Source: Minisyncoccota bacterium (GTDB lineage Bacteria > Patescibacteriota > Minisyncoccia > Phycocordibacterales > Phycocordibacteraceae). From it: 63,748 nucleotides of DNA. Each line of letters starts with the position of its first letter. Position 1 is the stretch's first letter. Below are positions 4,800 to 51,783 of this stretch, piece after piece. Both the position numbers and the translations under genes were made by a program. The DNA is taken from positions 1-63,748 of the forward strand of contig JBAYJI010000001.1 in NCBI GenBank assembly GCA_041665205.1. The letters run 5' to 3'. Under the pieces are notes generated by a model. It worked only from the letters and a program-made list of their open reading frames with translations. It searched no databases and was not told where the DNA came from.

Positions 4800-4808
4800 A
4801 ATACCCGT

Positions 4809-5903
4809 ATGCGGCTCGTTATCGCGACACCCTTATATCCGCCCGAGATAGGCGGTCCCGCGACCTACGCGAAGCTCCTCTTTGAAGGGCTGCCCGGAAA
4901 GGGGGTCAGCGTGGAGCTCGTGAAGTTCAGTGATGTCCGGCATTTGCCGAAGATTGTCCGGCACTACGTGTATTACCGGCGCGTGCTAAAGGCGGCTCGG
5001 CGCGCAGACGTGGTGCTCGCCCTCGACCCGGTCTCGGTCGGTCTGCCGGCACAGAAGGCGGCCGAGAAGGCGGGTAAGCCGTTTGTGGTGAAGATTGTCG
5101 GCGACTACGCGTGGGAGCAGGGGCAGCAGCGATTTGGCGTCACACAGACGCTCGACGAATTTGTACAAGAGAAGAAAGTGTCGCTCCCTCTCCGTGTCCT
5201 CCGGCAGATCCAGACTCGTGTGGCGCTCGCCGCCGCGAAGGTACTCGTCCCGAGCGGCTATTTGAAAAACGTGGTGACCGAATGGGGGGTCCCCAGCGAT
5301 GCGATACAGGTTGTCTACAACGCGGTGTCGCCTGAGGAGCCCGGTACCGTGCCGAGTGCGGTGATGGGGCTCCCGCGGCCCGTTGTGGTGACCGTGGGGC
5401 GTCTGGTGCCCTGGAAGGGTATGAGTGGCGTTATCGACAGCGTCGCCGGTCTGAGTGACGAAGGGGGCAAGGCCTCTCTGGTCATCGTCGGCGACGGACC
5501 GGACCATGTGCCGCTTATCTCACATGCCGAGAAGGCGCTTGAGGGTAGATGTATCTTCACGGGCGCGCTCCCGCACGCGGATACGCTTGCGACGATGAAG
5601 TATGCCGATGTGCTTGTGCTCAACTCTTCATATGAGGGCCTCTCGCACATCCTTATCGAGGCACTCATGCTCGGCGTGCCGGTCGTTGCGACAGAGGTCG
5701 GTGGCAACACCGAGGTGATACAGGACGGAGAGAATGGCCTCCTGGTCCCCTTCGGAGACACCGCCGCACTCAGCGGGGCGCTCGCGCGTATACTTAAAGA
5801 AGGGAAGCTACGCTCGCACATCTCGGCGCGTGCGCTCGAGTCGGCAAAGCGCTTTGAGGTCGAAACGATGCTCAGAGAGACGGCGAATCTTCTCAAGGTA
5901 TGA
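4809..5903 (+). CDS. Glycosyltransferase family 4
   Basis: MRLVIATPLYPPEIGGPATY N-terminus. NSSYEGLSHILIEALMLGVPVVATEVGG E-x7-E motif. Confidence 0.85.
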   Translation: MRLVIATPLYPPEIGGPATYAKLLFEGLPGKGVSVELVKFSDVRHLPKIVRHYVYYRRVLKAARRADVVLALDPVSVGLPAQKAAEKAGKPFVVKIVGDYAWEQGQQRFGVTQTLDEFVQEKKVSLPLRVLRQIQTRVALAAAKVLVPSGYLKNVVTEWGVPSDAIQVVYNAVSPEEPGTVPSAVMGLPRPVVVTVGRLVPWKGMSGVIDSVAGLSDEGGKASLVIVGDGPDHVPLISHAEKALEGRCIFTGALPHADTLATMKYADVLVLNSSYEGLSHILIEALMLGVPVVATEVGGNTEVIQDGENGLLVPFGDTAALSGALARILKEGKLRSHISARALESAKRFEVETMLRETANLLKV

Positions 5904-7042
5904 AAGTCCTATTTATCTCAAATGACTCGACACTATTCCTTGCGACGAGTGCATCGCGCGCCCGGATGCGTGCGTACGCCAGAGCGATAGAGGGTGAGCT
6001 CCATATCGTCTCGGTCGCGGGTTCTGACGCTCACGAAGAGCAGGAGGAGAATCTCTATCTCTACCCCGTGCATGCGTGGAAGATATTCCGCATCCGCGCA
6101 CTTGCCGCCCGCGCCCGCGCCCTTATCCTCGAACACGCAATCGAGGTCGTCTCGGCGCAAGATCCCTTCGAACACGGACTCGCGGCGCTCCGTGCTATTG
6201 CCGGTACAAATGCAAAACTGCATGTGCAGGTGCACACCGACTTCCTCTCTCCGTGGTTCATCCGAAGCGGTAACTGGCGCTCTCCGCGTGTGCGGATGCC
6301 ATTTCTCAATCGTTATCGTCTCGGTATTGCCGACCGTGTGTTGCCTGCAGCTGCGGGTATCCGCGTCGTATCTGAACGGGTGAAGGTGTCGCTCCTCGCC
6401 AAGTACGGGTCGCGTATCCCTGAGCCGTCGGTCATACCGGTCATGGTCGACGCGACGGTTCCCGCACTCGTGCACCTGCCTGCGCATCCTTTGTTTACCT
6501 TTGCACTTATCACCGTTGGCCGGCTCGAACCCGAGAAGCGCATCGAAGATATCCTCGCCGCGCTGAAGCTCGTCATCAATCACTATCCGATGGTGGGACT
6601 CTTTGTCGTCGGCGAGGGGAGCGAGCGCGGGAGGCTTGAGCGGATGACGCGTTCGCTCGACCTCACTGACAAGGTCGTCTTTCTCGGCGAGCGCGCCGAC
6701 GTGCGCTCGCTCATGCCCAGTGCGCAGGCATTTATCCAGGCGAGTGCCTATGAAGGGTACAGTCGTACCCTTGTCGAGGCGGCGCTCGCCAAGGTGCCGA
6801 TCATCACGACCGACGTCGGCATCGTCGGCGAAGTATTCAAGGGATACGAAGACGTGCTCGCGGTGCCGGTTGCCGACCCGACGGCGCTCTCGCTCAGCAT
6901 CGTCGGCTTTATTGAAGACAATCGAGTGCGACAAGAGCTCCCGATGCATGCCGAGACCACGGTGCGCGCGCACCTCGAATCTGTCGGCGATATCCCGGCG
7001 CGTATCGCAGCCGACCTCGCACGTGCAGCGGAAAGCGACTAA
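5900..7042 (+). CDS. Glycosyltransferase family 4
   Basis: ATGA stop-start overlap at 5900-5903. ASAYEGYSRTLVEAALAKVPIITTDVG motif. Confidence 0.85.
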   Translation: MKVLFISNDSTLFLATSASRARMRAYARAIEGELHIVSVAGSDAHEEQEENLYLYPVHAWKIFRIRALAARARALILEHAIEVVSAQDPFEHGLAALRAIAGTNAKLHVQVHTDFLSPWFIRSGNWRSPRVRMPFLNRYRLGIADRVLPAAAGIRVVSERVKVSLLAKYGSRIPEPSVIPVMVDATVPALVHLPAHPLFTFALITVGRLEPEKRIEDILAALKLVINHYPMVGLFVVGEGSERGRLERMTRSLDLTDKVVFLGERADVRSLMPSAQAFIQASAYEGYSRTLVEAALAKVPIITTDVGIVGEVFKGYEDVLAVPVADPTALSLSIVGFIEDNRVRQELPMHAETTVRAHLESVGDIPARIAADLARAAESD

Positions 7043-7102
7043 ACCCCTCGCGGGTCGGTTATAGAGCACATATGGTACCGGCATCGGCATCATGTTAAAG
7101 TC

Positions 7103-7969
7103 ATGCAAATGATTGCACACAAAGAGAATAAGCGACCCGTGGGCTTTATAGGCCAAGGGTACATCGGCAAGAATTATGCCGATGACTTCGAGAAGCGCGG
7201 CTTCTCGACCGTGCGGTATGCGCTTGAAGAGCCTTATCGGAACAATGAAGAGAAAATAAAAGAGTGCGACATCGTCTTCATCGCCGTGCCGACCCCAACA
7301 ACGCCGCAAGGTTTTGACGATTCAATCGTACGCGATGCGATCAGTCTCACGGAGATGGGGAGCATTGTTATCGTGAAGTCAACCATCGTGCCAGGTACGG
7401 CGAAATCGCTTCAGATGCAATATCCGGATTGCATCCTTTTTTATTCTCCCGAGTTTCTCTCCGAAGCGACTGCCGCGCACGATGCCGCGCATCCATTCTC
7501 GAATATCCTCGGTTTCGCTGTCGATGACGAGGCGCACCGCTTTGCGGCAGAGCGAGTACATGCGATCCTCCCGTCAGCACCCTTCTCGCTTACGTGTGAT
7601 AGTACGGAGGCGGAGATCATCAAATATGCGCACAATGGAAGCGGTTTTGTCGAAGTAGTCTTCTTCAATATCATGTATGAGCTCGCACAGAAACTCGGAG
7701 CGGATTGGGCGCCGGTAGAAAAAGCGATACAGGCCGATCCGTATGTCGCTCACCGGTATGCAAAGCCCGTCCACAAGACCGGTCGCGGCGCGGGCGGGCA
7801 TTGCTTCATCAAAGATTTTGCTGCGTTGCGCGGTTTGTGTGAACAGAAGGGTGTAGATGCTCTCGGAGTGTCGGTCCTTTCCGCACTCGAAAAGAAGAAC
7901 AATGCCCTCCTGAAGGGAAGCAATAAAGATTTGGATCTTCTGGAGGGTGTCTACGGAGATAGCGCATAA
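7103..7969 (+). CDS. Short UDP-glucose/GDP-mannose dehydrogenase-family protein (NAD-binding plus central catalytic domain, no C-terminal UDP-binding domain)
   Basis: VGFIGQGYIGKNY Rossmann, IVFIAVPTPT, VKSTIVPGT, YSPEFLSEATAAHD and catalytic-Cys region GGHCFIKD. Only 288 aa. Alternative start ATG 7109. Confidence 0.7.
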   Translation: MQMIAHKENKRPVGFIGQGYIGKNYADDFEKRGFSTVRYALEEPYRNNEEKIKECDIVFIAVPTPTTPQGFDDSIVRDAISLTEMGSIVIVKSTIVPGTAKSLQMQYPDCILFYSPEFLSEATAAHDAAHPFSNILGFAVDDEAHRFAAERVHAILPSAPFSLTCDSTEAEIIKYAHNGSGFVEVVFFNIMYELAQKLGADWAPVEKAIQADPYVAHRYAKPVHKTGRGAGGHCFIKDFAALRGLCEQKGVDALGVSVLSALEKKNNALLKGSNKDLDLLEGVYGDSA

Positions 7970-9039
7970 TGAAACTGCTTATCATCACTCAAGCGGTCGA
8001 TCAAGAGGATCCTGTCCTCGGGTTCTTCGTTCGTTGGATAGAAGAGTTTGCAAAGCAGATCGAACAGGTCGAGGTCATTTGTCTCAAGTCGGGGAAGCAC
8101 AATCTCCCTGAGAATGTACACGTGCACTCACTTGGGAAAGAAAGACGAACGACCGAAAGCGCCACCATATATGATAGTGTTTTCGGTCGTGTCCGGTATG
8201 CGTGGCGGTTCTTCTTGCTCGCGTGGCGTCTGCGCCGCAGCTATGACACGGTGTTCGTGCACATGAACCCCGAGTACGTTGTCCTTGGCGGTCCGCTCTG
8301 GCGTCTCTTAGGTAAGCGCATTGCGCTCTGGTACACGCACAAGAGCGTCAATCTGAAGCTCCGTCTCGCGGAACTCGTGGCGAATGATATGTTCACCGCC
8401 TCACCCGAAGGGTTCCTTCTTCGATCGCGCAAACTCCATGTTGTAGGACATGGTATAGACGCGGCAACGTTTCGTACCGCCATCGGATTGTTTCGGATGC
8501 CCCTGCGCATCGTGAGCGTCGGACGCATCACGCCAATCAAGAACCTCGATATCCTTGTTGAAGTGGTTGCGCTCCTGAAAGAGCGGGGAATTCTCGCGAC
8601 TGCAACCCTTATCGGGGAGCCTGCAAAACCTTCCGACGAAGCATATCGCGAGTCGCTCAGGGATCTTGCGAAGAGGCGGGGTATTTCAGACAGTATTATC
8701 TTTGCGGGAAGCGTGCCGTACGCACAGATGCCGGAGAAGTATCGCGACTTCGACCTGTCGGTGAATTTGAGTCCGACCGGTGGCATGGACAAGGCTGTAC
8801 TCGAATCTATGGCGGCAGGACTCCTCGTCTTCGTGTCCAATCGAGCTTTCGCGGGATTGTTCGGGCCGCATGCGCGCGAACTCATGTTTGATGAAAAGGA
8901 TGCGGCGGCCTGCGCCGACAAGATAGCCGCATTTACGCACCGAGGGGAGGATGTTGCGCACGTGCGCGCGGACTTACAAGGATGGGTCGAGACCATGAGC
9001 GTGCAGTCGCTTATACCGCGTATCCTTTCATATCTATGA
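7969..9039 (+). CDS. Glycosyltransferase family 4-like
   Basis: TAATG junction with the previous gene. MKLLIITQAVDQEDPVLGFFVRWIEEF N-terminus. GGMDKAVLESMAAGLLVFVSN C-terminal motif. Confidence 0.8.
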   Translation: MKLLIITQAVDQEDPVLGFFVRWIEEFAKQIEQVEVICLKSGKHNLPENVHVHSLGKERRTTESATIYDSVFGRVRYAWRFFLLAWRLRRSYDTVFVHMNPEYVVLGGPLWRLLGKRIALWYTHKSVNLKLRLAELVANDMFTASPEGFLLRSRKLHVVGHGIDAATFRTAIGLFRMPLRIVSVGRITPIKNLDILVEVVALLKERGILATATLIGEPAKPSDEAYRESLRDLAKRRGISDSIIFAGSVPYAQMPEKYRDFDLSVNLSPTGGMDKAVLESMAAGLLVFVSNRAFAGLFGPHARELMFDEKDAAACADKIAAFTHRGEDVAHVRADLQGWVETMSVQSLIPRILSYL

Positions 9040-12309: not shown

Positions 12310-12879
12310 CTAAGGAGCAGTCACTCTCATGGTGGACTGGCTATTCGGTTTTATTGTCACGTTCGGCGGGATGCCGTACATCATACTGTCTGACGGGATA
12401 TCTTTGTTGCAGAGCGATAGAGCACCGATAACGACATTGTCGCCGATCCGCACCGGCTTGATCACCTTTGCTCCCGTGTAGACGACGACGTTATTGCCGA
12501 GTCGCGGCAGGAGCACGTCTTCAGTGCCGGCTATCGTGACACCGTTGTAGAGAGTCGCGTTCTCGCCTATCGAGGCGCTGCTCCCTATTGTCACGTCGGC
12601 AGGGTGCGGCAAGAACAATCCCGGACCGATATCCGCGTAGGGCGAGATGTCGTTCGCGAACCGATATTGACGCCATATCCGGATGCGGAAGTGTCCGCGC
12701 CAGCCCTTGCGGATAAACAACTGGTTCACACGCAGCCAGAACACGCAGGCGAAACCAGGCCGCATCCGGATGAGGCTCCGAGTCTGTAGCAGGCGGGAGA
12801 GAGACGGCCCCTTCGGGTCGATCGTGCCGCCTGCAACAGCGGCGTCTTGGCACACAGTGTCCCAGAAACTCTTGGTCAT
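12310..12879 (-). CDS. Hexapeptide-repeat (left-handed beta-helix) O-acetyltransferase, serine-acetyltransferase-like
   Basis: ISPYADIGPGLFLPHPADVTIGSSASIGENATLYNGVTIAG...VVVYTGAKVIKPVRIGDNVVIGA hexapeptide repeats. Confidence 0.75.
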   Translation of the reverse strand: MTKSFWDTVCQDAAVAGGTIDPKGPSLSRLLQTRSLIRMRPGFACVFWLRVNQLFIRKGWRGHFRIRIWRQYRFANDISPYADIGPGLFLPHPADVTIGSSASIGENATLYNGVTIAGTEDVLLPRLGNNVVVYTGAKVIKPVRIGDNVVIGALSLCNKDIPSDSMMYGIPPNVTIKPNSQSTMRVTAP

Positions 12880-12892
12880 GAAAGGGAATATA

Positions 12893-14980
12893 TCACACGC
12901 TGCGGTTTAGGAATGAGGCGAGCCCTCCGGGGCGCGAGACGGCATACACCTCCGCTTCGACGTCGAGAGCCAGAATGCGTACTGCTTGTATAAGCTGGTT
13001 CGAGACCGGTCCGCTAAGCTCGGCCCCTTGAAGGGGAGGGTAGCGGAGTAGCATCGTGTAGCCGAGCGCGCTCTTGTCGTCTGGGCGGCCACCCGGGGTC
13101 ACCTCGACAAGCTCGGCACCGAGCTTGTGATGGAAGTTCATCACCGGGTCGCTCCCGGCGAGCAGATAGTCGCGTACGAATTCTGCATCCGGCGTGTCTG
13201 TCATCTCGGGTACTGACTTCGGCTTGAAGGTCGCGCTGCAGATAGAAACGCAGGATATCTTCTTGTCGGCATAAGAGAAAGATATTTGCCCCGCAAGCGT
13301 GTTGCTCGTATCGATTGCACCCAGGGTCGTATAGTTTCCGAGGTACTTCCTGTATTCGCGTTCATCCTTAGTAAGCGGCTGCCAGCAGTGGTTGTAGAGC
13401 ATGCGTGAGGCCTCAGCAAGAGGTGACTGAGACGTGAGTACGACAAATCTGAAATCATGACTCTCAATGAGGTCGTAGATTGATTCGAACGTCCCCTCAA
13501 GCTGCTTCCGGAGGGTCATGCGCTGCACCTTGCCGGTCGAGGTCATGGGCAGTTCTTCAGCACGGACGCTCTTGAGATATTTCGGCGTCTCGTATGCGCT
13601 CAGTACCGCGGATCCGGCAAGAAGAGAGAGCTTCAATCTCCGTGTCGCGCTTGCCGCATCGACATCCGCTTTCCACACCACGACCGCGCCTATCTCCTCG
13701 CCGTAGCGTTCATCGGGGACACCGACGATATAGGCTTGGTCGATGGCGGAGTCCGTTTTCTTGAGTGCGTTCTCGACAGCGACCGGCGAGATATTCACGC
13801 CGCCCTTGATGATGATCTCTTTGGCACGACCTTTGAGGTAGAAGAAGCGCCTCCCCTCAATCTCTTTCCAGTAACCGATATCTCCGGTCAGGAAATATCC
13901 GTCGCGAAAGGCATCCTCGCCGCCGATATACCCCTGCATGACCGCCGGACCTTTGACTATAAGTTCGCCCTCCTCCCCTTCACCAAGAATCTTTCCCCCA
14001 GCACTTGCTGCCTCGACGGTGGCCCATTTCATTGCTACGCCGATTGAGTTCTCCGCGACTGCTTTTGCGTACTGCTCTTCGCTCAGATCCATCGGTACGC
14101 CGGTGACGCGGAGTGCAGTCTCGGTCTGTCCGTAGCCCTGGTAGAGAGGGATGGAGAACTTCTGCATGAACTCGAGCGCATCTCCCGCGATGACGGGCGC
14201 AGAACCGAGCTGGATGCGAGTGAGTTTCAAACGGCTCTTCGTCAACTCAAATTCTTTTTCGCGACTGAGCTGGTCGAAGACGATGGAGGGTACGATTGAG
14301 GTAAACGTCGCGCCGCTCTCTGCTGCTTGCGCAAAGAAATGCGAGTTAGAGTAGCGGGGCGGCAGCGCGATCGAGGCGCCCGCGAGAAGCGACGCAAGGC
14401 AGAAGACGGTCGAGTTGATATGGTGGAGCGGGAGCTCGACCAAGAAGCGATCATCTTCGACGATACGTAGCCACTCGACTATCCCCTCCGCGTTGGCGAC
14501 GAGATTCTCTAATGTCATCCGGGCACCCTTCGGATACGCCGTCGTGCCGGACGTGAAGAGTATGAGCGCTTCGTGAGAGAGGTCAGGCATCCACGAGATT
14601 TCCTCCGAACCTGAAGCGCTGTGTATCTCAGAGAGATTCTCTTGCGTTATCAGCAGCTTTGCATCGCTTGCTGACGTCTTGTACGCACGCAATTCGTCAG
14701 TGTCTCGTTTCGTGTCGAGCGGCATGGTCGCGATACCCATACTCCATGCCGCCCAGCTTATCGAGAGCAGGTCGGCGCAATTGCCGAGCGCAAGCGCGAC
14801 CCGGTCGCCCCTCGAAAGCCGTTTTCTCTGAAGGTATGCGGCGGCGGCCTCGACTCGCGCGAGCAGCGCTGCCCGCGAGATCTCTTCTATGATCGTGCCG
14901 GAAGTGTCGCACACAAGCAACGCTGCCCGCGCGGGATCGGCGTGCGCAAGACCGGAGAGATGTTCGTGCAGGTTTTTCAT
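12893..14980 (-). CDS. Acyl/aryl-AMP ligase (ANL superfamily) fused to a ~200-aa C-terminal domain with GNAT-like features
   Basis: AMP-binding motif LFTSGTTAYPKG, YGQTE, GDIGYW, terminal TGKVQR. The extra C-terminal domain ends with a GNAT-like HHKLGAELVEV block. Start set to ATG 14980 (MKNLHEHL), which forms an ATGA overlap with the gtrA-like stop. Confidence 0.75.
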   Translation of the reverse strand: MKNLHEHLSGLAHADPARAALLVCDTSGTIIEEISRAALLARVEAAAAYLQRKRLSRGDRVALALGNCADLLSISWAAWSMGIATMPLDTKRDTDELRAYKTSASDAKLLITQENLSEIHSASGSEEISWMPDLSHEALILFTSGTTAYPKGARMTLENLVANAEGIVEWLRIVEDDRFLVELPLHHINSTVFCLASLLAGASIALPPRYSNSHFFAQAAESGATFTSIVPSIVFDQLSREKEFELTKSRLKLTRIQLGSAPVIAGDALEFMQKFSIPLYQGYGQTETALRVTGVPMDLSEEQYAKAVAENSIGVAMKWATVEAASAGGKILGEGEEGELIVKGPAVMQGYIGGEDAFRDGYFLTGDIGYWKEIEGRRFFYLKGRAKEIIIKGGVNISPVAVENALKKTDSAIDQAYIVGVPDERYGEEIGAVVVWKADVDAASATRRLKLSLLAGSAVLSAYETPKYLKSVRAEELPMTSTGKVQRMTLRKQLEGTFESIYDLIESHDFRFVVLTSQSPLAEASRMLYNHCWQPLTKDEREYRKYLGNYTTLGAIDTSNTLAGQISFSYADKKISCVSICSATFKPKSVPEMTDTPDAEFVRDYLLAGSDPVMNFHHKLGAELVEVTPGGRPDDKSALGYTMLLRYPPLQGAELSGPVSNQLIQAVRILALDVEAEVYAVSRPGGLASFLNRSV

Positions 14981-15438
14981 AATTCTGACGAATCGGGTCT
15001 GCGCCAGACGAACAGGAGATAGAGCGTATAGTTCCACGCGAATCCGAGAATGATGCCGGCGGCATAGGCTCCGTGGATGAGAAGGAGATTGTTCGTTTGC
15101 CGTTCAGCCAGAAATACGAACAGCCACTGTAGGAAGACGGAACCGCTCACGACCAAGTGGAAGCGCAGGAGGCGCGAAGGGAGCGATATCTCGTGTTGCC
15201 GGTCACTGAAGGAGAAGCGGTTGTTGAGATAGAAATTCGTCAGGATACCGGTTTCTGCGCTGATCAGAACCGCGATACTAAGAGGGAACAGCCGTAGATA
15301 TACGCCGAGCATCTCGAATACCGCGGTCTGTACGACGAGTGCGGCGACGCCCACAAAGAGCGCACGCACAAGGCGCGAATCGGCCAACTTCGTATACATC
15401 TGCAGTACGGTGTGCATCAGAAATGAATGATTGTGCAT
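14977..15438 (-). CDS. GtrA-family small membrane protein (polyprenyl-phosphate-sugar flippase-like)
   Basis: ~150 aa, four hydrophobic helices, RFxxVG-type N-terminus (LVRALFVGVAALVVQTAVFE) and YLNNRFSF motif typical of the GtrA family. Start could be a downstream Met. Confidence 0.7.
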   Translation of the reverse strand: MHNHSFLMHTVLQMYTKLADSRLVRALFVGVAALVVQTAVFEMLGVYLRLFPLSIAVLISAETGILTNFYLNNRFSFSDRQHEISLPSRLLRFHLVVSGSVFLQWLFVFLAERQTNNLLLIHGAYAAGIILGFAWNYTLYLLFVWRRPDSSEL

Positions 15439-15463: not shown

Positions 15464-16867
15464 TTGATGTCTTTCGTACGGGCGCATAAGATCGAGATAG
15501 GCATTTTTATGCTCGCGCTCGCGGTGCGCCTCCTCTATTTCGGGTTGAGTTACTCGGCCAACGGCGGGATCCTCGGTGCGGCCGCCAATAGCGGCGACGG
15601 CTATTTCGATATCGGTCAGAATATTATCGCGGGGATCGGTTATTCCATCGTGCACGAGCCGCCGTATGCGCCCACGTCCTACCGGACACCCGTGATGCCG
15701 TATTTCATTGCGGGGGTTTATTTCCTCTTCGGGAACTACTTCATGGTCATCTTGGTGCACCTGCTTATCGGGAGCATCGTGCCCTTGCTTGGCATGCGCA
15801 TCGCGCGGTATATAACTGCAATACGGGTAATACCTATCGCGGTGGGTGTATTTCTCGCTCTTGAGCCGACGAGCATACTGCTCTCCGCTGTATTCTTGAG
15901 CGAGACAGTGTTCACCTTCCTGTTCGCACTCTCGATTATCTTCTTGTTCCGCTACTGGGAGGGAAAGGCGCTCGCGCCACTCCTTGTGTCCGCACTCTTG
16001 CTCGGTCTCTCGACGCTTACGAGGCCGCCGGTGGAGTATCTCCCAGCCGTCCTTGTCGCACTCCTCTTCTGGGAGACGCGTAAGCATCTGTCGCAGAGGG
16101 TGTTCGTGCATATCGGGCTCTATGTACTCGTCTTCGTCCTTACTCTTTCTCCATGGATCTATAGGAATTACCAGGTATTCGGCGTGTTGGGTCTCAGTTC
16201 TCAACAGGGAGCCGCCCTCTACACCATTACCGTGCCGTCGGTGCTCGCGATTGAACGCAAGACGAACTTTTCGCAGGAGTACAACAAGGCGATAGCGGGC
16301 CCGAATGAGACAGATTTCGTGCAGTCTGCCGCGTATACGAAACTCGCTCTGCCAATATTGGCGAGCCACCCGAGAGAGCTTGTGATTCTTGGTGCGAATA
16401 CCGCGTTCAGTTTCTTCACCAACGACGGCATGTTCGATGTGCTACGCCAAATCAAGCGTGATGGCGGGATGTTTGACGTCTGGAGCCGGATCAAGAGCGA
16501 GAACGGTATACAGCTCGGCGAGTCGTCGATCTCTTTGCTGGTGACTGCACCGCTCACGATGCTGCAGTATCTCGCTGCGCTCGCGACTACGCCGCTCGCT
16601 CTCGTCGTTTTCGGGCGGGCGGTGTGGTTTCTAATCACGCTCGCGTTCTTGATGGGCGCATGGCATGCATTGCGTCAGGAACGGGAGAATATCTATGTGC
16701 TCACTGCCATTAGCATTGTTGCTTACATACTACTGACCACGCTCGTCGTCGGCTTCACGGTGAACTTCCGTTACCGTTTGCCGGTGAATGCAATTATTCT
16801 TACCTTTGCTGCGTATGAAGTCGTCTTGCTCTCGATGTGGTTTCGCAGGAGACTGCATACAACATAA
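15464..16867 (+). CDS. GT-C fold membrane glycosyltransferase (GT39/ArnT/PMT-like), copy 1
   Basis: Polytopic membrane protein. Conserved first loop GIGYSIVHEPPYAPTSYRTPVMPYF. Paralog of 17590..18960. TTG at 15464, ATG at 15467 (more likely start). Confidence 0.7.
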   Translation: MMSFVRAHKIEIGIFMLALAVRLLYFGLSYSANGGILGAAANSGDGYFDIGQNIIAGIGYSIVHEPPYAPTSYRTPVMPYFIAGVYFLFGNYFMVILVHLLIGSIVPLLGMRIARYITAIRVIPIAVGVFLALEPTSILLSAVFLSETVFTFLFALSIIFLFRYWEGKALAPLLVSALLLGLSTLTRPPVEYLPAVLVALLFWETRKHLSQRVFVHIGLYVLVFVLTLSPWIYRNYQVFGVLGLSSQQGAALYTITVPSVLAIERKTNFSQEYNKAIAGPNETDFVQSAAYTKLALPILASHPRELVILGANTAFSFFTNDGMFDVLRQIKRDGGMFDVWSRIKSENGIQLGESSISLLVTAPLTMLQYLAALATTPLALVVFGRAVWFLITLAFLMGAWHALRQERENIYVLTAISIVAYILLTTLVVGFTVNFRYRLPVNAIILTFAAYEVVLLSMWFRRRLHTT

Positions 16868-44961: not shown

Positions 44962-44983
44962 CCATGCTTAAACCCCGGTATTT

Positions 44984-44992
44984 TGCTATACT
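44984..44992 (+). promoter_or_regulatory. Extended -10 element TGcTATACT, 8 nt upstream of the secA ATG
   Basis: TG 44984-44985, TATACT 44987-44992, ATG 45001. No Shine-Dalgarno sequence in between. Confidence 0.45.
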
Positions 44993-45000
44993 GCCTGCCA

Positions 45001-47517
<2,517 letters not shown>

Positions 47518-47535: not shown

Positions 47536-47587
47536 GAATCAGAACTAAAAACACTACCATATATGGTAGTGTTTTTAGTTCTGATTC
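47536..47587. terminator. 52-bp perfect palindrome between convergent secA and the trpR-like gene (bidirectional terminator; palindrome family copy A)
   Basis: GAATCAGAACTAAAAACACTACCATA|TATGGTAGTGTTTTTAGTTCTGATTC, 26-bp arms with no mismatch. Confidence 0.8.
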
Positions 47588-47595
47588 TCCCGTGT

Positions 47596-48012
47596 TTATT
47601 TGATTTCCGGTTCAGGGAAGAGGAGGAAGTGGAGCGGATACCGTTTCTTGAAGCGGAAGAGCATGCTTTTTGCATATTTCTTCTTAAATTCGCGCTTCCC
47701 GAACTCTTCTTCCATCGCTGCAATCGCCGTCTCGTATCCCGGCATCTGATCTTGAAGCCATGAATGTACGCGCTCGATAGTAGAATATCCGGCACCGGTT
47801 CTCTGGCGGATAGCGTCGCGGGTTTCATCTTGCAGGAGAAGGCGGGCGATAAGGATTCGTCGTCCGAGCATGATACGTTCGCTTTCAGTCAGAAGATCAC
47901 GAAGGAAGAGTTTCATCGCGGCGCGCCCACGTACCGCTCCCGCCGCGGTGTAGAGAGCGTCAAGCGTCGCTATACGTTCCTTCTCATTCAACTCGTCCAT
48001 CCTCTTTTTCAT
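47596..48012 (-). CDS. TrpR-like (YerC/YecD family) DNA-binding protein
   Basis: LFLRDLLTESERIMLGRRILIARLLLQDETRDAIRQRTGAGYSTIERV matches the Trp-repressor/YerC fold pattern (LT-x-E-R-x-...-x-G-x-S-x-x-T-I-x-R). Confidence 0.7.
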   Translation of the reverse strand: MKKRMDELNEKERIATLDALYTAAGAVRGRAAMKLFLRDLLTESERIMLGRRILIARLLLQDETRDAIRQRTGAGYSTIERVHSWLQDQMPGYETAIAAMEEEFGKREFKKKYAKSMLFRFKKRYPLHFLLFPEPEIK

Positions 48013-48014
48013 AT

Positions 48015-48038
48015 AAAAACACTACCATATATGGTAGT
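48015..48038. promoter_or_regulatory. Palindrome family copy B: 24 nt identical to 47547-47570, abutting the trpR-like start codon (candidate operator)
   Basis: AAAAACACTACCATATATGGTAGT. The core ACTACCATATATGGTAGT is an 18-bp perfect palindrome 3 nt upstream of the minus-strand ATG (48012). Confidence 0.5.
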
Positions 48039-48146
48039 ACTGATACGCAGCCCGTTTGGGGATATTCGTTAAGGCAATCTCCGCCAGCGTATGCGCACTG
48101 TGCATAAGGTGTTTGGTCTGCGAAGAGCAGTGGTAGGGTAGGGGTA

Positions 48147-51100
48147 ATGCGCGTTCGGAACGTCGCGTTATTTTTTATCAGCTGCGCGTTTGCGTTCAGC
48201 GTGTCGCCGATTGTCGCTACTGCTGCCTCTAATCCGACCGTGCTTATTGCACGGTTCGCAATGCCCCAGGTCTCAAAATCCTGGTACGGCATGTATGAGA
48301 CGGCACTGAAGACTGGCGATACTCCTCAGTTGAAGACATGTATCGAGAGTCCTCAAGGTAAACCGACGGTAACGGTTGACCTCTCGCAATTAGGGGTTTC
48401 GTCGAGTACGTGGGTAGTCAGCGGCAATTCGGGTACTCTTCTGGTTGGCAATGTGTATCACTACTCAGTCTACTGCTACGACTACGGATTCACTATCGGC
48501 GCTGATGCGGCAGTTTCTGACGGATTAAAGACCGTATCTATATCGGCTGTTGACTCGTCTGGCACCACCGCTTCAGGTACCGCACAAGTAGCGGTCGATG
48601 ACGCTCTGCCGACGCTTTCGCTCACCGATATCTCGTTCTCCGCTGTGCCATTAAAAGGGGGCGACAGTGTGTATCTGAGCGGATTAGCAGACGGGACCGG
48701 GAGTCCTTTGTCGGCGTTTCAAATTAAGGGGACATTTTTGGATACGGAAAGGAATATCGTGCTCCAGTCCTTTTACAAGAGAGACGTGCTTACTGCGGCT
48801 ATCGCCACCTCGACCGACGGTTCCTTTAACCGCGTTGCATTTGCTCTCGGTGACAATGAGGCGAGAATCATCTCAGCCGCTCCTTCCTTAAGAATCGACA
48901 TTATTGCGTACGACGGATCCGGACACACCGCGACAACGAGTTTGGAGGTTCCGGTTCCGAAGCCACCTCCGCCCGACCCGTGCATTGCCGCCGGCACCTG
49001 TGTCTCAAATGTCCTCTTCTTGCCGGGTATCGAGGGGAGCCGGCTCTACGAGGGGACGGGCTGCGGCAAGGCTGCCGAAGAGAAACTCTGGGAGCCGTAC
49101 GAGTCACTCTGGGGTGTGTTGCGCAGCGCAGGTGACAAGAAGGCGCGAGACCTCGCCCTCGACTCGTCGGGTGCGAGTGTCTGCACCGATATTTATACAA
49201 AGGAGGGCGACGTGATCGACACAGTCCGCGGCAGCAATATCTACAAGTCATTTCTCGACGAGATGAACGGGCTCAAGGCGGACGGTACGATAAACGATTG
49301 GAAGCCAGTCGCCTACGACTGGCGGTTCTCGCTCGACGACCTGCTCAGTAAGGGTACTGAGCGCGCCGGCAAAATCTATTACGAAGAAGCGACGAGCACG
49401 CCGTACATCGAACAGACGCTTCGCGCGCTGGCAGCGGGCTCGAAGAGCGGCAAAGTGACGATCGTCGCGCACAGCAACGGCGGCCTTGTGACGAAGGCGC
49501 TCTTGAACAGGCTCGGTGGTGCAGCGTCGTCCTTGGTGGACAAGGTCGTGATGGTGGGCGCGCCGCAGAGCGGCGCGCCCGAGAGTCTCGGCGCAGCACT
49601 CATGGGCTACAACGCCGGTATCTACAAATACGGTTTCCCTATCCTCTCAAACGCTGCCGCGCGCTCACTCGCGCAGAACCTGCCGATGACGTACCACCTA
49701 CTCCCGTCAAGCGAGTACCTAGAGAGTATCGCGAGCGACGAAGAACACCCCGTCGCCCGCTTCGCGGGCGACGGCTACGCGCGCGAGATCGCGGCATACG
49801 GCTCTACCATCACGAACACGACTGAGCTTGGCGACTTCCTCCTTGCACGCGAGGGCGGTCGCAAGAAGCCGAAGGAGTATGACCTGGGCTCTGCAGAGGT
49901 TTTGAATCAGGGACTCATAGACTACGCGAACAACACACACTCGATCCTCGACTTGTGGACTCCGCCTGCGGGTATCGAGGTGAGCCAGATCGCCGGTTGG
50001 GGAGCCGACACGGTCGCGGGGATAGACTTCTACACTGAGCCGTCCCGAATCCGCTCCTTTTTCGGGCCGAAGCGGAGGTATAAGCCGATATTTATCGAGG
50101 ATGGCGACGGGACAGTCCCTGTCCCGAGCGCGCTCCTGGTCGCCTCGAGCACTAGTGTAAAGAGGTATTGGGTTGATTTGAATTCTTATCGTATTGCAAC
50201 ATCAATAAAACGTGACCATAAAGATTTATTTGAAATCCCCTCGCTTGAAGAATGTATCAAGAACATCATTAAGAATGTCACCGGCACCTTGCCCCCGTAC
50301 ATCTCGACGAGCCAGCCGGCGCCAATCGCAGATGACAAGAAGCTTGTCTTCTTCCTCCGCTCGTCGCGCGTCCTCTACGTGCGAGACTCTCCTGAGAGCG
50401 AGGAGCCTCCGGTGAAGGTCACGATGCAGGTCAAGGACCCTTCGGGCAAGATTACCGGTATCGCAGAGGACGACTCGGTTACCGAAGACATCCCCGACTC
50501 GACGTACGGCGAGTTCGGCGAGGTGCAATACCTGATCGTCCCCGCAAGTGCAACACCGGGCAGCCGCTACGAGCTCACGCTTCACGGGCAGGCGAGCAGC
50601 GGGGGAGTGAGCGGCGCACAAGAGAGCACCTTCTCGCTCGAGATCCAAGAGAGCTCGGGCGGCGTCGCGACCGCTCTCGCGACTCTCGCAGATATCCCCG
50701 TGGTCGCGAGCACTACCGCGAGCCTCACTATCGGAGCGAACATCGACACTGTCTCGCCGCTTGTGGTCGACGAGCGTGGCGATGGCACCGAGACTCTCAC
50801 CGTCACACCTGTCGTCGGTGAGACCGTGCTCTATGAGCCGCCGGTCGTCGAGACACCTCCTGCACCAGCTCAAGCAGCTCGCGCTGCCGGCGGCCCGGGC
50901 TACTCGCCGTACCTGCCGCTCGCTGTCTCGACCCCTGCTTCTCTATCACTTGTTGTTCTCGAAGCCTCTACGACAACGCTTCTCGCTACTGCGACCGCCA
51001 CTCCTGCGGCTGCCGTCCCGCGTATCGTCACGCCGCGACTTGTAGCAGCTCCCCGTGCCTCTAATCCTGCGAGTACTCCGCTCTCACCGAGCGCTATCGC

Positions 51101-51233
51101 AAACGCGTTCCCCGACCTCTCGCAGACCGCCTCGGTTTATGGCGCTTCTCAACAGCCGGTCTTAAAGAAGATAGGCGAAGCGGTCTATACTAGTCTCTAT
51201 AGGCTCTGGGCTGCCTTAAAGGGATTCTTCTAA
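48147..51233 (+). CDS. Large secreted LCAT/PGAP1-like alpha/beta-hydrolase (phospholipase/acyltransferase-type lipase) with N-terminal Ig-like and C-terminal Pro/Ala/Thr-rich regions
   Basis: Signal peptide VALFFISCAFAFSVSPIVATAAS. LCAT-family motif AYDWR (YDWR codons 49314-49325). Nucleophile elbow VAHSNGG (Ser codon 49473-49475). Confidence 0.7.
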   Translation: MRVRNVALFFISCAFAFSVSPIVATAASNPTVLIARFAMPQVSKSWYGMYETALKTGDTPQLKTCIESPQGKPTVTVDLSQLGVSSSTWVVSGNSGTLLVGNVYHYSVYCYDYGFTIGADAAVSDGLKTVSISAVDSSGTTASGTAQVAVDDALPTLSLTDISFSAVPLKGGDSVYLSGLADGTGSPLSAFQIKGTFLDTERNIVLQSFYKRDVLTAAIATSTDGSFNRVAFALGDNEARIISAAPSLRIDIIAYDGSGHTATTSLEVPVPKPPPPDPCIAAGTCVSNVLFLPGIEGSRLYEGTGCGKAAEEKLWEPYESLWGVLRSAGDKKARDLALDSSGASVCTDIYTKEGDVIDTVRGSNIYKSFLDEMNGLKADGTINDWKPVAYDWRFSLDDLLSKGTERAGKIYYEEATSTPYIEQTLRALAAGSKSGKVTIVAHSNGGLVTKALLNRLGGAASSLVDKVVMVGAPQSGAPESLGAALMGYNAGIYKYGFPILSNAAARSLAQNLPMTYHLLPSSEYLESIASDEEHPVARFAGDGYAREIAAYGSTITNTTELGDFLLAREGGRKKPKEYDLGSAEVLNQGLIDYANNTHSILDLWTPPAGIEVSQIAGWGADTVAGIDFYTEPSRIRSFFGPKRRYKPIFIEDGDGTVPVPSALLVASSTSVKRYWVDLNSYRIATSIKRDHKDLFEIPSLEECIKNIIKNVTGTLPPYISTSQPAPIADDKKLVFFLRSSRVLYVRDSPESEEPPVKVTMQVKDPSGKITGIAEDDSVTEDIPDSTYGEFGEVQYLIVPASATPGSRYELTLHGQASSGGVSGAQESTFSLEIQESSGGVATALATLADIPVVASTTASLTIGANIDTVSPLVVDERGDGTETLTVTPVVGETVLYEPPVVETPPAPAQAARAAGGPGYSPYLPLAVSTPASLSLVVLEASTTTLLATATATPAAAVPRIVTPRLVAAPRASNPASTPLSPSAIANAFPDLSQTASVYGASQQPVLKKIGEAVYTSLYRLWAALKGFF

Positions 51234-51237
51234 AAAA

Positions 51238-51648
51238 ATGAAAACCAAATTCATACAATGTATACCAGCCGTACTCGTTCTAGTAGCTATTGGATTTCGG
51301 TACTTTAGTCAGTGGTGTATTCTTACGGATTCATCATGCTATGGCACATGGGTGCATTGGATTTATCTAGAGATCACTAATCCGGTATTTTATTTCACTC
51401 TCTTTTGTTTACCAATCACCATCGTCCTTGCCTTCGTGCCGTGGGGAGTGTTCAAGTCTTGGCTCAAGCTCGCAGCGTGGGCGGTGCCGCTCCTCCTCTT
51501 CTGGGTCTCGACGCAGCCGGTGTACCCGGGCTTTCTCTCGACCGACCGGGACGACGCGGCACGGCTCGCCGGGGGAGTCTTCGCGGGTGTGAGTCTCGCT
51601 CTCCTTATCTGGCGATCAATCGCCGCCCGGCGAGCAGGGGAGAGATAG
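51238..51648 (+). CDS. Small integral membrane protein, unknown function
   Basis: Four hydrophobic segments. Starts 4 nt after the lipase stop. Confidence 0.55.
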   Translation: MKTKFIQCIPAVLVLVAIGFRYFSQWCILTDSSCYGTWVHWIYLEITNPVFYFTLFCLPITIVLAFVPWGVFKSWLKLAAWAVPLLLFWVSTQPVYPGFLSTDRDDAARLAGGVFAGVSLALLIWRSIAARRAGER

Positions 51649-51676
51649 AGTACAAACAGTTGGTACTACAAGCCAA

Positions 51677-51710
51677 CCTAAAACACTTTCATATATGAAA
51701 GTGTTTTAGG
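51677..51710. terminator. 34-bp perfect palindrome (palindrome family copy C)
   Basis: CCTAAAACACTTTCATAT|ATGAAAGTGTTTTAGG. Shares TAAAACACT-nn-CATATATG-nn-AGTGTTTTA with copy A. Confidence 0.7.
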
Positions 51711-51783
51711 TCTATAGTTTCGGCGGAACGATTTTAATTTGCGGGTTGGTGATTTATGTTTTCTAGTGTATTGTGGAGGGACT

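Follow-up and report, generated by a model that had tools for sequence, protein, structure and literature searches.

Acyl transfer at phospholipid surfaces is best understood for two secreted human enzymes, lysosomal phospholipase A2 (LPLA2 or group XV PLA2; PDB 4X90-4X97) and lecithin:cholesterol acyltransferase (LCAT; 4XWG, 5TXF, 6MVD), both of which cut phospholipids and work at lipid surfaces. Bacterial proteins of the same Pfam family (PF02450), to which PDAT also belongs, labelled "lipase/acyltransferase domain-containing", occur in Bacillota, Actinomycetota and Chloroflexota, and we know of none with a demonstrated function. Tle4 (TplE), a type VI phospholipase effector of Pseudomonas aeruginosa, is contained together with Tli4 in PDB entry 4R1D; according to the passages cited here, it is encoded, like other antibacterial type VI effectors, beside its cognate protective gene, and Tli4 binds the effector as a soluble partner (PMC4832377). 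For the CPR predator Vampirococcus lugosii, a secreted phospholipase (Vamp_34_196) was proposed to disrupt the host membrane and to supply its own (PMC8080830). How CPR bacteria (Patescibacteria) get their membrane lipids is a question that the field itself names as open: in the cited passages, their mechanisms of lipid uptake and breakdown are called "not identified" (PMC11665869), and CPR fractions are described as lysolipid-rich, with phospholipase A named as a possible source (PMC7242380).

Here, we describe a concrete, clonable gene pair that encodes a serine hydrolase predicted to be exported (P0001) and a member of a new family of small membrane proteins (P0002). The pair lies in a window of 63,748 nucleotides, i.e., the whole stretch of DNA that was analysed (Table 1). 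The source bacterium is ultra-small and comes from groundwater. A preceding sequence-only reading had suggested that it may be of CPR type, which agrees with its 716-kb genome and with the labels of its homologues (Paceibacterota, Kaiserbacteria, Minisyncoccia); the 1028-aa ORF which that reading had reported was found as claimed. We establish the family, fold and invariant catalytic residues of the enzyme, its export signal and domain layout, its linkage to the partner and the absence of lipid-synthesis genes from the genome. We regard the enzyme as a new form of a familiar type. About even chances are given here to the reading that it is a Sec-exported, surface-held LCAT/LPLA2-fold hydrolase harvesting lipids from host membranes, with the partner as shield or dock.

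Table 1. Positions of the features in the window
Feature	Position	Strand	Residues and remarks
LCAT/LPLA2-type serine hydrolase gene (P0001)	48147..51233	+	ORF, 1028 aa
Signal-peptide-like N-terminus	48147..48224	+	aa 1-26, predicted cleavage after A-T-A
Two all-beta N-terminal domains, variable module	48234..48956	+	aa ~30-150, ~156-269
LCAT/LPLA2-fold alpha/beta-hydrolase domain, with cap and membrane-binding insertions	48993..50306	+	aa 283-720, model
AYDWR motif	49311..49325	+	aa 389-393
Ser443 codon, nucleophile in AHSNGG	49473..49475	+	codon arithmetic from start 48147
Asp654 codon, predicted triad acid in EDGDGTVP	50106..50108	+	133/133 homologues
His691 codon, predicted triad base	50217..50219	+	133/133 homologues
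Conserved all-beta domain 3' of the catalytic domain	50334..50831	+	aa ~730-895
Pro/Ala/Thr/Ser-rich disordered stalk	50844..51152	+	aa ~900-1002, roughly 100 residues
Conserved motif QTASVYGASQQ, then amphipathic helix	51117..51230	+	aa 991-1028
Four-helix membrane protein gene (P0002)	51238..51648	+	136 aa, begins 4 nt past enzyme stop codon
Terminator-like palindrome closing the two-gene unit	51676..51711	+	stem of 16 pairs

With LPLA2 and LCAT the enzyme shares PF02450, the whole-chain fold with its insertions, the collinear YDWR, AHSxG and GDGDGTV motifs and the Ser-Asp-His set. Unlike theirs, its catalytic domain belongs to a larger chain, a putative bacterial surface protein of 1028 aa that also contains beta modules at the N-terminus, one further beta domain, the stalk and the C-terminal helix; a further difference is the dedicated partner, a membrane protein of four helices. 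The PF02450 proteins of Bacillota, Actinomycetota and Chloroflexota, its nearest language-model neighbours (scores 0.75-0.83, a lead only), measure about 420-690 aa compared with 1028 aa here. Tle4 resembles the enzyme in its FxPGIxG and HSxGG motifs (HSNGG here). The gene beside that of Tle4 is protective, and the conserved gene downstream of the enzyme gene may be so, too. However, delivery of the enzyme would proceed by Sec export and surface tethering instead of type VI secretion, its partner is a polytopic membrane protein whereas Tli4 is a soluble binder, and the structural match to Tle4 is clearly weaker than that to LPLA2 and LCAT. Compared by description only, Vampirococcus stands for the same idea, in which a secreted phospholipase serves a CPR bacterium that lacks phospholipid synthesis; Vampirococcus belongs to another CPR lineage, and the cited passage names no partner protein or modular architecture (PMC8080830).

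Family, fold and catalytic residues

The LCAT-family assignment made from the sequence was borne out by both the Pfam search and the fold superposition. With the 1028-aa protein, the Pfam LCAT profile PF02450 scored 52 bits (cut-off 21, E 8.7e-14) over enzyme residues 365-662 and profile positions 68-356 of 392, and a PF02450 scan of the genome gave 53.4 bits for the enzyme, in agreement with the single-protein search. Similarity to the PGAP1-type deacylase family was weak in the Pfam search (E 0.002) and below the cut-off. Homologues of the enzyme fell into 2689 clusters (50% identity) at E<=1e-3, and at least 1,500 sequence clusters remained at E<=1e-30. The median identity of the enzyme core to its homologues is 0.51, and its sequence identity to LPLA2/LCAT is 15-18%.

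An AlphaFold (AF2) model of residues 276-751 (pLDDT 93.5, pTM 0.92) aligned with 344 of the 377 residues of LPLA2 (4x97_A; Z 33.5, rmsd 2.8) and with 331 of the 368 residues of LCAT (6mvd_B; Z 31.1), the superposed stretch being model 10-436 vs chain 3-379. The third-best structural relative was Tle4 (Z 21.2, 365 residues aligned). Foldseek returned E values of 2e-15 for LPLA2, 3e-12 for LCAT and 2e-10 for Tle4. Generic lipases reached Z values of at most 18.3, i.e., 12-15 Z units below LPLA2/LCAT, and the polyester (PHB) depolymerase PhaZ7 and ordinary lipases scored about 16-18. In a profile search by sequence, Tle4 was the best match (E 0.0058), and LPLA2 (E 0.019) was below significance. 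Since LPLA2 and LCAT were aligned almost over the whole chain, the modelled match takes in the lipid-binding insertions, beyond the hydrolase core. As judged from the model, the enzyme thus has the whole-chain LCAT/LPLA2 fold with the family-specific insertions included, i.e., the full fold of both reference enzymes. This fold leaves the substrate unfixed, as Tle4, PhaZ7 and ordinary lipases also align with the model.

The core fold is common to generic lipases and PhaZ7, and this would suit an ordinary secreted lipase or esterase that feeds the cell on free esters from its surroundings (triglycerides, lipids of dead cells, debris of wax or polyester) and has no specific tie to the membrane of a living host. 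Many PF02450 proteins of free-living phyla among the language-model neighbours are likewise labelled esterase/lipase (again a lead only), and the patchy occurrence described below would fit an accessory nutritional enzyme. Nevertheless, we consider this reading decidedly unlikely: the match to LPLA2 and LCAT includes insertions with which these enzymes act on lipoprotein surfaces and bilayers, no route for free fatty acids is seen in the genome (no PlsX/Y/C, CdsA, ACP or DegV match), the surface tether and adhesin-like modules argue for contact-dependent action, and a dedicated membrane partner is unexpected for a simple exo-lipase.

Within the AYDWR motif, Y390, D391, W392 and R393 are identical in all 133 aligned homologues; in the profile search, the motif pairs with APYDWR of LPLA2, and YDWR upstream of the nucleophile is what we take to be the hallmark of the LCAT family. 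Ser443, kept in 133/133 homologues, sits between strand 437-442 and helix 444-463 of the full-length model and pairs with the AHSMG serine of LPLA2, for which the title of entry 4x92 reads LPLA2-S165A. The EDGDGTVP motif pairs with GDGDGTV of LPLA2; Asp652, beside the invariant Asp654, is kept in only 120 of the 133 homologues. His691 falls within the modelled stretch that was superposed on LPLA2 and LCAT in their C-terminal part. The Ser-Asp spacing is presumably about 50 residues longer than in human LCAT/LPLA2. The sequence-only reading had located AYDWR and the Ser codon of VAHSNGG precisely where they are listed in Table 1, and it had proposed to map the catalytic triad; the predicted Ser-Asp-His set is intact, with Ser443, Asp654 and His691 invariant throughout the homologues.

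Export signal, accessory domains and C-terminus

The N-terminus, MRVRNVALFFISCAFAFSVSPIVATA followed by AS behind the predicted cleavage site, combines a basic n-region with a hydrophobic core and carries an A-x-A site. No other stretch of the whole protein reaches a Kyte-Doolittle hydropathy of at least 1.6 (over 19 residues), and the full-length model shows the N-terminus as a lone helix (residues 2-16). The pattern recurs in homologues (Ala26 in 109/133), which supports the signal peptide predicted earlier. Export is also in keeping with the secA gene close by (44983-47517). The public gene call (P0003) begins at Met39 and gives a protein of 990 aa, by which the signal peptide is deleted; based on the N-termini of homologues and a GGGG-rich stretch just 5' of 48147, we favour Met1 as the start.

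The two N-terminal domains have strand-only secondary structure in the full-length model, consistent with the Ig-like repeats of the sequence-only reading; they lack a Pfam match, and their median identity to homologues is 0.20. P0004 is 76% identical to the enzyme over residues 275-1028, with unrelated N-termini, and the closest relative of the core has a beta-helix N-terminus instead of the beta domains. Beta-helix, DUF5011 or other recognised extra domains are present in 41 of the 120 listed homologues, which, together with the N-terminus of P0004, supports an exchangeable module. The domain at ~730-895 consists of strands only in the full-length model (pLDDT mostly >90) and matched no Pfam family; it is covered in 72/72 homologues, with a median identity of 0.42.

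The stalk is poorly conserved (median identity 0.19), and its residues 915-1002 have pLDDT values <50 in the full-length model. The long Pro/Ala/Thr-rich tail noticed earlier is reflected in 27 Ala, 19 Pro, 14 Thr and 13 Ser among the 143 residues 886-1028. The helix that follows (1004-1027) is modelled with a pLDDT of about 85-92. Its hydrophobic moment is high and its mean hydropathy near zero, which marks it as an amphipathic helix as opposed to a classical membrane anchor. The motif QTASVYGASQQ occurs in 32 of 67 complete related ORFs and, among the scanned ORFs of the source genome, in no other. Some homologues (L082, L086) have a hydrophobic helix and a Lys/Arg tail where the enzyme has the amphipathic helix. 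Support for tethering thus comes from the disordered stalk, the confidently modelled C-terminal helix behind it and the hydrophobic anchor at the same position in these homologues.

A tether of this kind would put the enzyme beside the membrane of its own cell, where it could remodel or deacylate the cell's own (scavenged) lipids, lipoproteins or glycolipids, e.g., convert diacyl lipids to lysolipids, with P0002 as a membrane-embedded subunit. The linkage to a membrane protein of the same cell (58/67 loci; 0/15 enzyme-negative relatives), the weak PGAP1-type similarity below the cut-off and the lysolipid-rich small-cell fractions in the cited passage (PMC7242380) speak for such an own-envelope enzyme. 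Yet a stalk of ~100 residues with distal exchangeable modules is hard to explain for an enzyme acting on the membrane that anchors it, and a housekeeping role would be expected in all close relatives, whereas 7/18 same-genus genomes gave no match; we regard this explanation as quite unlikely.

A sortase-anchored protein was rejected as a candidate: SQTAS and an amphipathic helix without a basic tail provide no LPXTG-type signal. The source genome encodes three sortases and one canonical substrate (LPNTG, helix and KKR). The beta domain 730-895, the C-terminal helix 1004-1027 and the family-wide status of the small membrane-protein partner had been missed by the sequence-only reading.

The small membrane-protein partner

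For P0002, we found 54 homologues, all of them outside Pfam families and annotated as no more than "hypothetical protein". In 58 of 67 complete related loci, the gene directly downstream of that of the enzyme is of the P0002 type, irrespective of which kind of C-terminus the enzyme has. Among the relatives, P0002 was found in 9 of 16 genomes with the enzyme and in 0 of 15 without it. This gene order supports an operon-like linkage of the two genes, which had been read as co-transcribed with a spacing of 4 nt, and by the same sequence comparison P0002 is a conserved, family-wide partner of the enzyme. Cys34, Arg104 and Asp106 are invariant, and Cys27 and Asp105 are kept in at least 90% of the homologues. 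The core of the palindrome behind the two genes is one of 13 copies of the CACTWYCATATATGRWAGTG palindrome genome-wide.

Pore-forming colicins have small polytopic membrane immunity proteins, which counts in favour of an interbacterial toxin-immunity pair, in which the lipase would lyse the membranes of competitors or prey, the partner would be the immunity protein and lipid uptake would be incidental. The doubled partner-like matches downstream of the enzyme gene or tandem enzyme-partner pairs at L043, L046, L053, L069, L087 and G011 point in the same direction, as do the variable N-terminal modules before a constant enzyme, which are reminiscent of polymorphic targeting. Moreover, Tle4 is the closest solved bacterial structure and the best profile match, and antibacterial effectors sit beside a specific immunity gene in the cited account (PMC4832377), just as the partner gene directly follows the enzyme gene here. 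Still, the enzyme core shows high conservation instead of polymorphism; its gene lies among the housekeeping genes secA (44983-47517), obg and gatB, and this locus is neither mobile nor that of a secretion system. The same account describes Tli4 as binding its effector as a soluble partner (PMC4832377), whereas the partner here has four membrane helices and belongs to no known family, and the C-terminal tether better fits a cell-bound enzyme than a released toxin. Altogether, we hold a toxin-immunity pair to be unlikely. If it were one, bacteria without a known secretion-system weapon would have a contact weapon of a new type.

Lipid-synthesis genes, proposed role and distribution

The whole-genome check for fab and pls genes suggested by the sequence-only reading was extended to eight families in the synthesis or handling of fatty acids and phospholipids. 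FabF, PlsX, PlsY, PlsC, CdsA, PgsA-type, ACP and DegV profiles (PF00109, PF02504, PF02660, PF01553, PF01148, PF01066, PF00550 and PF02645) had no match in the 95%-complete genome; the same searches were positive in 6 to 14 of 14 control genomes. This lack of detectable fatty-acid and phospholipid synthesis suggests the harvesting of host lipids as the likely role of the enzyme, and we consider this role plausible.

For host-lipid harvesting, we infer substrate, direction of action, tethering and the role of the partner as follows. After cleavage of the signal peptide, the protein would hang by its C-terminal amphipathic helix on the flexible stalk of ~100 residues, with the catalytic domain and the two exchangeable beta-sandwich binding modules facing outwards. 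By analogy with the solved relatives, the membrane-binding and cap insertions would bind the bilayer, and the enzyme could open up the membrane of a host cell nearby to gain lipids from it. Ser443 would take over an acyl chain from a glycerophospholipid, a lysolipid being released, and the acceptor of this chain would then be water (phospholipase A activity) or the hydroxyl group of a lipid (transacylation). The four-helix partner would sit in the producer's own membrane, where it may shield this membrane from the enzyme in an immunity-like manner, or else serve as its docking site and take over what it produces. Should host lipids indeed be harvested by the pair, this would give access to the parasitic step of CPR bacteria.

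A more far-reaching version, to which we assign a low probability, is a self-contained lipid-acquisition machine of enzyme and partner that needs no ATP, CoA or ACP. Here, the stalk-tethered enzyme would dock to the host via its exchangeable beta modules, load a host acyl chain onto Ser443 and then either free lysolipids into the symbiont or acylate lysolipids presented by the partner at the symbiont surface. The second of these options would be akin to a side-reaction of LCAT, its lysolecithin acyltransferase activity. If true, such a machine would explain both the lysolipid-rich membranes reported for CPR bacteria and the rebuilding of diacyl lipids without the PlsX/Y/C pathway.

The distribution of the enzyme is patchy. 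It is present in 16 of 31 relatives, and 7 of the 18 same-genus genomes gave no match. Both the enzyme and a PlsC-type acyltransferase were missing from 13 of the 31 relatives and the ketoacyl synthase (FabF) from all 31, so lipid acquisition in the group does not depend on the enzyme. Across the phylum, 6 of 401 sampled genomes had a strong full-length match, all within the class of the source bacterium. The sequence-only reading had called such an enzyme an obvious tool for scavenging, should the organism be a CPR-type episymbiont; the absence of the lipid-synthesis families agrees with this premise, and the distribution weakens the "obvious". Whether the pair serves harvesting or contact killing, the patchiness makes it one of several solutions, not a universal one. 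Among the control genomes, three also had a PF02450 match (Bacillus subtilis, Deinococcus radiodurans and Lactococcus lactis), which in two of these exceeded the cut-off.

Start codon, family and fold of the enzyme

On re-check, the coordinates given by the sequence-only reading for the enzyme ORF, its AYDWR motif, the serine codon and the following ORF were all exact (see table). The public gene call starts at Met39 and yields 990 aa, by which the signal peptide would be lost. We favour Met1 because homologue N-termini share a pattern (M-R-x-(R/K), a hydrophobic stretch, P-x-x-A), 109 of 133 aligned sequences retain Ala26, and a G-rich, ribosome-binding-like stretch lies upstream of 48147 and none before the Met39 codon.

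Features of the window and of the encoded enzyme (domain boundaries as predicted)
Feature	Nucleotides	Strand	Residues	Remarks
Enzyme ORF	48147-51233	+	1028	real ORF
AYDWR motif	49311-49325		389-393	
Serine of VAHSNGG	49473-49475		443	codon
Signal peptide			N-terminal helix	full-length model
Two all-beta domains			~30-150 and 156-269	full-length model
Catalytic domain			283-720	full-length model
Post-catalytic all-beta domain			~730-895	full-length model
Disordered stretch			915-1002	full-length model; Ala/Pro/Thr/Ser-rich
C-terminal helix			1004-1027	full-length model; confident
Partner ORF	51238-51648	+	136	start 4 nt past enzyme stop codon
Terminator-like palindrome	51676-51711			3' of partner gene; spans 20-nt palindrome copy 51684-51703
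20-nt palindrome copies	8160-8179, 47552-47571, 48020-48039, 51684-51703			
TrpR/YerC-like gene	47596-48012	-		divergent from enzyme gene
AMP-binding enzyme	12896-15037	-	714	
ORFs accompanying the AMP-binding enzyme	12313-12879; 15464-16864	-; +		

Pfam LCAT (PF02450) scored 52 bits over residues 365-662 (cut-off 21), and scores to other Pfam alpha/beta-hydrolase families were at or below their cut-offs; NCBIfam gave no match to either the enzyme or its partner. Among 1.84 billion cluster representatives, 2689 relatives were found at E<=1e-3, of which 1502 reached E<=1e-30. Identical in all 133 aligned sequences were Phe291 and Gly294 (FLPGIEGS strand), Tyr390-Asp391-Trp392-Arg393, Gly445 and Gly446, as well as Ser443, Asp654 and His691, the predicted catalytic Ser-Asp-His set. 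The family profile was collinear with lysosomal phospholipase A2 (LPLA2) at YDWR, AHSxG/GxPxxG and GDGDGTV (E 0.019, not significant alone), and the LPLA2 serine that it paired is the residue mutated in PDB entry 4x92, 'LPLA2-S165A'. A single-sequence search of PDB sequences gave no match.

An AlphaFold2 model of the core (residues 276-751; mean pLDDT 93.5, pTM 0.92) found LPLA2 as its best Foldseek match (E 2e-15, TM 0.72-0.74 by target), followed by LCAT (E 3e-12) and Tle4, a type VI secretion lipase effector of Pseudomonas aeruginosa (E 2e-10); ordinary lipases appeared only from E 1.4e-4. Together with the PF02450 match, these structural hits uphold the LCAT-family assignment of the sequence-only reading. 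Re-alignment with VIA-align placed LPLA2 at Z 33.5 (rmsd 2.8 Å, 344 of 377 residues), LCAT at Z 31.1 (331 of 368), Tle4 at Z 21.2 and Legionella PlaB at Z 18.5; generic lipases, the PHB depolymerase PhaZ7 and CALB did not exceed Z 18.3. The match extends over almost the entire chains of LPLA2 and LCAT, and therefore the likeness covers the insertions that set lipid-surface enzymes apart from plain hydrolases; the predicted core would share these family insertions.

A second alpha/beta hydrolase of the genome (256 aa, contig C15, L002:1372-2142, minus strand) has an AHSKGG elbow and scored 26.8 bits to PGAP1 (cut-off 24.3) and 21.4 bits to LCAT (at the cut-off of 21). It has no obvious signal peptide and adjoins an mreB-like and other housekeeping genes.

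Domain architecture and C-terminal end

The full-length model (mean pLDDT 83.8) predicts beta domains on both sides of the catalytic domain, followed by a disordered stalk and a terminal helix; Pfam gave no usable match for residues 29-275, 720-900 or 901-1028. Against 72 homologues, the core has a median identity of 0.51 and the post-catalytic domain one of 0.42; the N-terminal region (0.20) and the stalk (0.19) are far less conserved. The closest core relative (P0004) shares 76% identity with the enzyme across residues 275-1028, and its 446-residue N-terminus is unrelated and of beta-helix/NosD type. Among the 120 homologues listed, extra domains were beta-helix (27), DUF5011 (10), PF28492 alone (3) and PF17963 together with PF17892 (1). 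Judged by these comparisons, the N-terminal module is exchangeable.

The sequence QTASVYxASQQ plus an amphipathic helix forms the C-terminal end of 32 of 67 complete related ORFs. Of the genome's 7,719 six-frame ORFs, an HMM of this motif matched the enzyme alone, which rules out a general sorting signal. Eleven ORFs of the 67 carried an alternative end by regex, with further cases visible by eye. Here an acidic run precedes PG(M/L)x(I/V)P(Y/G), and EKGSLxIxY closes the chain; the motif, absent from the window's own enzyme, occurs at loci L025, L031, L046, L054, L058, L061, L064, L068, L078, L083, L090, L092, L094 and L095 and may be another anchoring or sorting element. The remaining ends were classed by script as transmembrane-like (4) or 'other' (20); L082 and L086, from these classes, close with a plain hydrophobic helix and a Lys/Arg tail. 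This range of ends points to a putative membrane-proximal tether at the C-terminus, a topology in which the N-terminus would lie outside and distal.

Anchoring by sortase is unlikely, as the enzyme has SQTAS in place of an LPXTG-type motif and lacks a basic tail. Three sortase genes are present in the genome, along with a single canonical LPNTG-type substrate, a 548-aa ORF (contig C25, ~4610-7484; LPNTG, hydrophobic helix, KKR) that lies some 0.8 kb upstream of one of these genes.

The partner gene and its surroundings

The 136-aa partner has hydrophobic stretches that we read as four membrane helices; with Lys and Arg at either end, its N- and C-termini would probably both lie on the cytoplasmic side. 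Three residues (Cys34, Arg104, Asp106) never vary, and two more (Cys27, Asp105) are conserved in 90% or more of the sequences; they belong to a Cys pair and to the motif RDDAARLAG, placed in the two putative outer loops. Its 54 homologues are all without a Pfam family and are named at most 'hypothetical protein', a Pfam search of the partner itself gave no match, and the protein atlas offered no informative neighbour.

We scanned 79 related loci from public genomes with HMMs from alignments built here. Of 82 enzyme ORF pieces, 15 were excluded as incomplete or with less than 450 nt downstream; a partner was called on the same strand, -60 to +300 nt from the enzyme stop codon. A partner-like gene followed 58 of the 67 complete enzymes, including all 32 with the helix motif, all 11 with the alternative motif and two of the four with a transmembrane-like end. 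Given this equal presence with the alternative motif, specific binding of the partner to the enzyme's C-terminal helix was dropped. In 31 related genomes the partner profile matched nine, all enzyme-positive and every match beside the enzyme gene, and none of the 15 enzyme-negative genomes. At the sequence level, enzyme and partner thus constitute a conserved two-gene module.

Both this pairing and the resemblance to Tle4 speak for a toxin-immunity pair, in which the partner would be the immunity protein; this is one of three alternatives that divide among them what our preferred reading, set out below, leaves over.

Two partner-like domain matches lie downstream of the enzyme at L053, L087, L089, L090 and L100, and as separate genes at L043 and L069. 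Such double matches form either one open frame or two genes in tandem, which suggests that the predicted four-helix protein has been duplicated or fused at some loci; at some, whole enzyme-partner pairs occur twice in tandem.

The surrounding genes are housekeeping genes (murB, secA; obg and gatB downstream) and the divergent TrpR-like gene, which matches Pfam Trp_repressor and has two paralogues (contigs C24 and C9). Regulation of the enzyme by this gene was dropped as an explanation, since only 2 of the 79 related loci have a TrpR-like neighbour. Crude clustering of locus ORFs found no other conserved neighbour in more than about 15 loci, except antisense shadows of the enzyme gene. No terminator-like site separates enzyme and partner genes, and an Rfam scan of the window gave no match. 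The 20-nt palindrome CACT(A/T)(C/T)CATATATG(G/A)(A/T)AGTG occurs four times in the window (none expected) and 13 times in the genome, its outer arms often lengthened by A-runs and T-runs. Three copies flank the TrpR-like gene and the enzyme-partner unit. Candidate roles for the palindrome are bidirectional terminator, REP-like element and operator.

Lipid metabolism, distribution and proposed function

The genome (715,840 bp in 44 contigs, GC content ~56%), of which the window forms contig 1, is rated 95% complete. Profile searches found no ketoacyl synthase, acyl carrier protein or DegV/FakB, and no PlsX, PlsY, PlsC-type acyltransferase, CdsA or CDP-alcohol phosphatidyltransferase; the same profiles matched in 6 to 14 of 14 control genomes. 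At this completeness the absence of lipid synthesis is strong but not absolute, and it agrees with what the sequence-only reading had proposed. Ketoacyl synthase was found in none of the 31 relatives and a PlsC-type gene in six. Enzyme and PlsC occurred together in four genomes, PlsC alone in two, the enzyme alone in 12 and neither in 13. There is therefore no trade-off, and the enzyme as a PlsC substitute was dropped; because 13 genomes lack both, the enzyme is not the group's general lipid route.

Including the window's own genome, the enzyme is present in 16 of the 31 relatives; within the genus it occurs in 11 of 18 genomes, and beyond that in 4 of 12 other families in the order. Of 401 genomes sampled evenly across the phylum, 39 gave some match and only six, the window's own genome counted, a strong full-length one (E<1e-50). 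All six belong to the window's class; no match was found in at least 20 sampled genomes from this class or order. Source bins of homologues are labelled Paceibacterota, Kaiserbacteria, Minisyncoccia, Nomurabacteria, Moraniibacteria and 'Patescibacteria group'. This DNA stretch occurs in groundwater metagenome runs from two studies, one of which may be its source, and no RNA run was among them.

The observations of the sequence-only reading (exact coordinates, enzyme family, signal-peptide-like N-terminus) held, and its interpretation was only partly supported: lipid scavenging suits a cell in which no lipid synthesis was detected, but lipid acquisition in the group does not hinge on this enzyme, as 13 of 31 genomes lack it and PlsC alike.

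Characterised members of the LCAT/LPLA2 fold work at lipid surfaces, where they move an acyl chain of a phospholipid to water or a lipid hydroxyl. The most economical reading, to which we give an even chance, is that the enzyme is a contact-dependent phospholipase A/transacylase acting on another cell's membrane. With its predicted Sec-type signal, adhesin-like exchangeable modules, stalk and C-terminal membrane-proximal element, it would act on contact at a neighbour's membrane. Besides the toxin-immunity pair, a generic exo-lipase and a remodeller of the cell's own envelope share the remainder. In the boldest reading, enzyme and partner would rebuild diacyl lipids by transacylation without an activated acyl carrier.

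The contact-dependent reading fits the lysolipid enrichment reported for CPR-rich cell fractions (PMC7242380) and echoes an earlier proposal for Vampirococcus (PMC8080830). Among the top-ranked matches of a literature search on Patescibacteria, Parcubacteria or Paceibacteria with LCAT or lipase, there was no description of the enzyme family. Host-lipid harvest by a secreted phospholipase is not a new idea and this kind of enzyme is already known; new are its architecture, the partner family and the pairing of the two.

The sole AMP-binding (acyl/aryl-adenylating) enzyme found in the genome has about 200 extra C-terminal residues and adjoins a hexapeptide-repeat transferase and a PMT_2-type glycosyltransferase. 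This glycan-type gene group may serve acylation of a glycan or surface polymer and not lipid metabolism.
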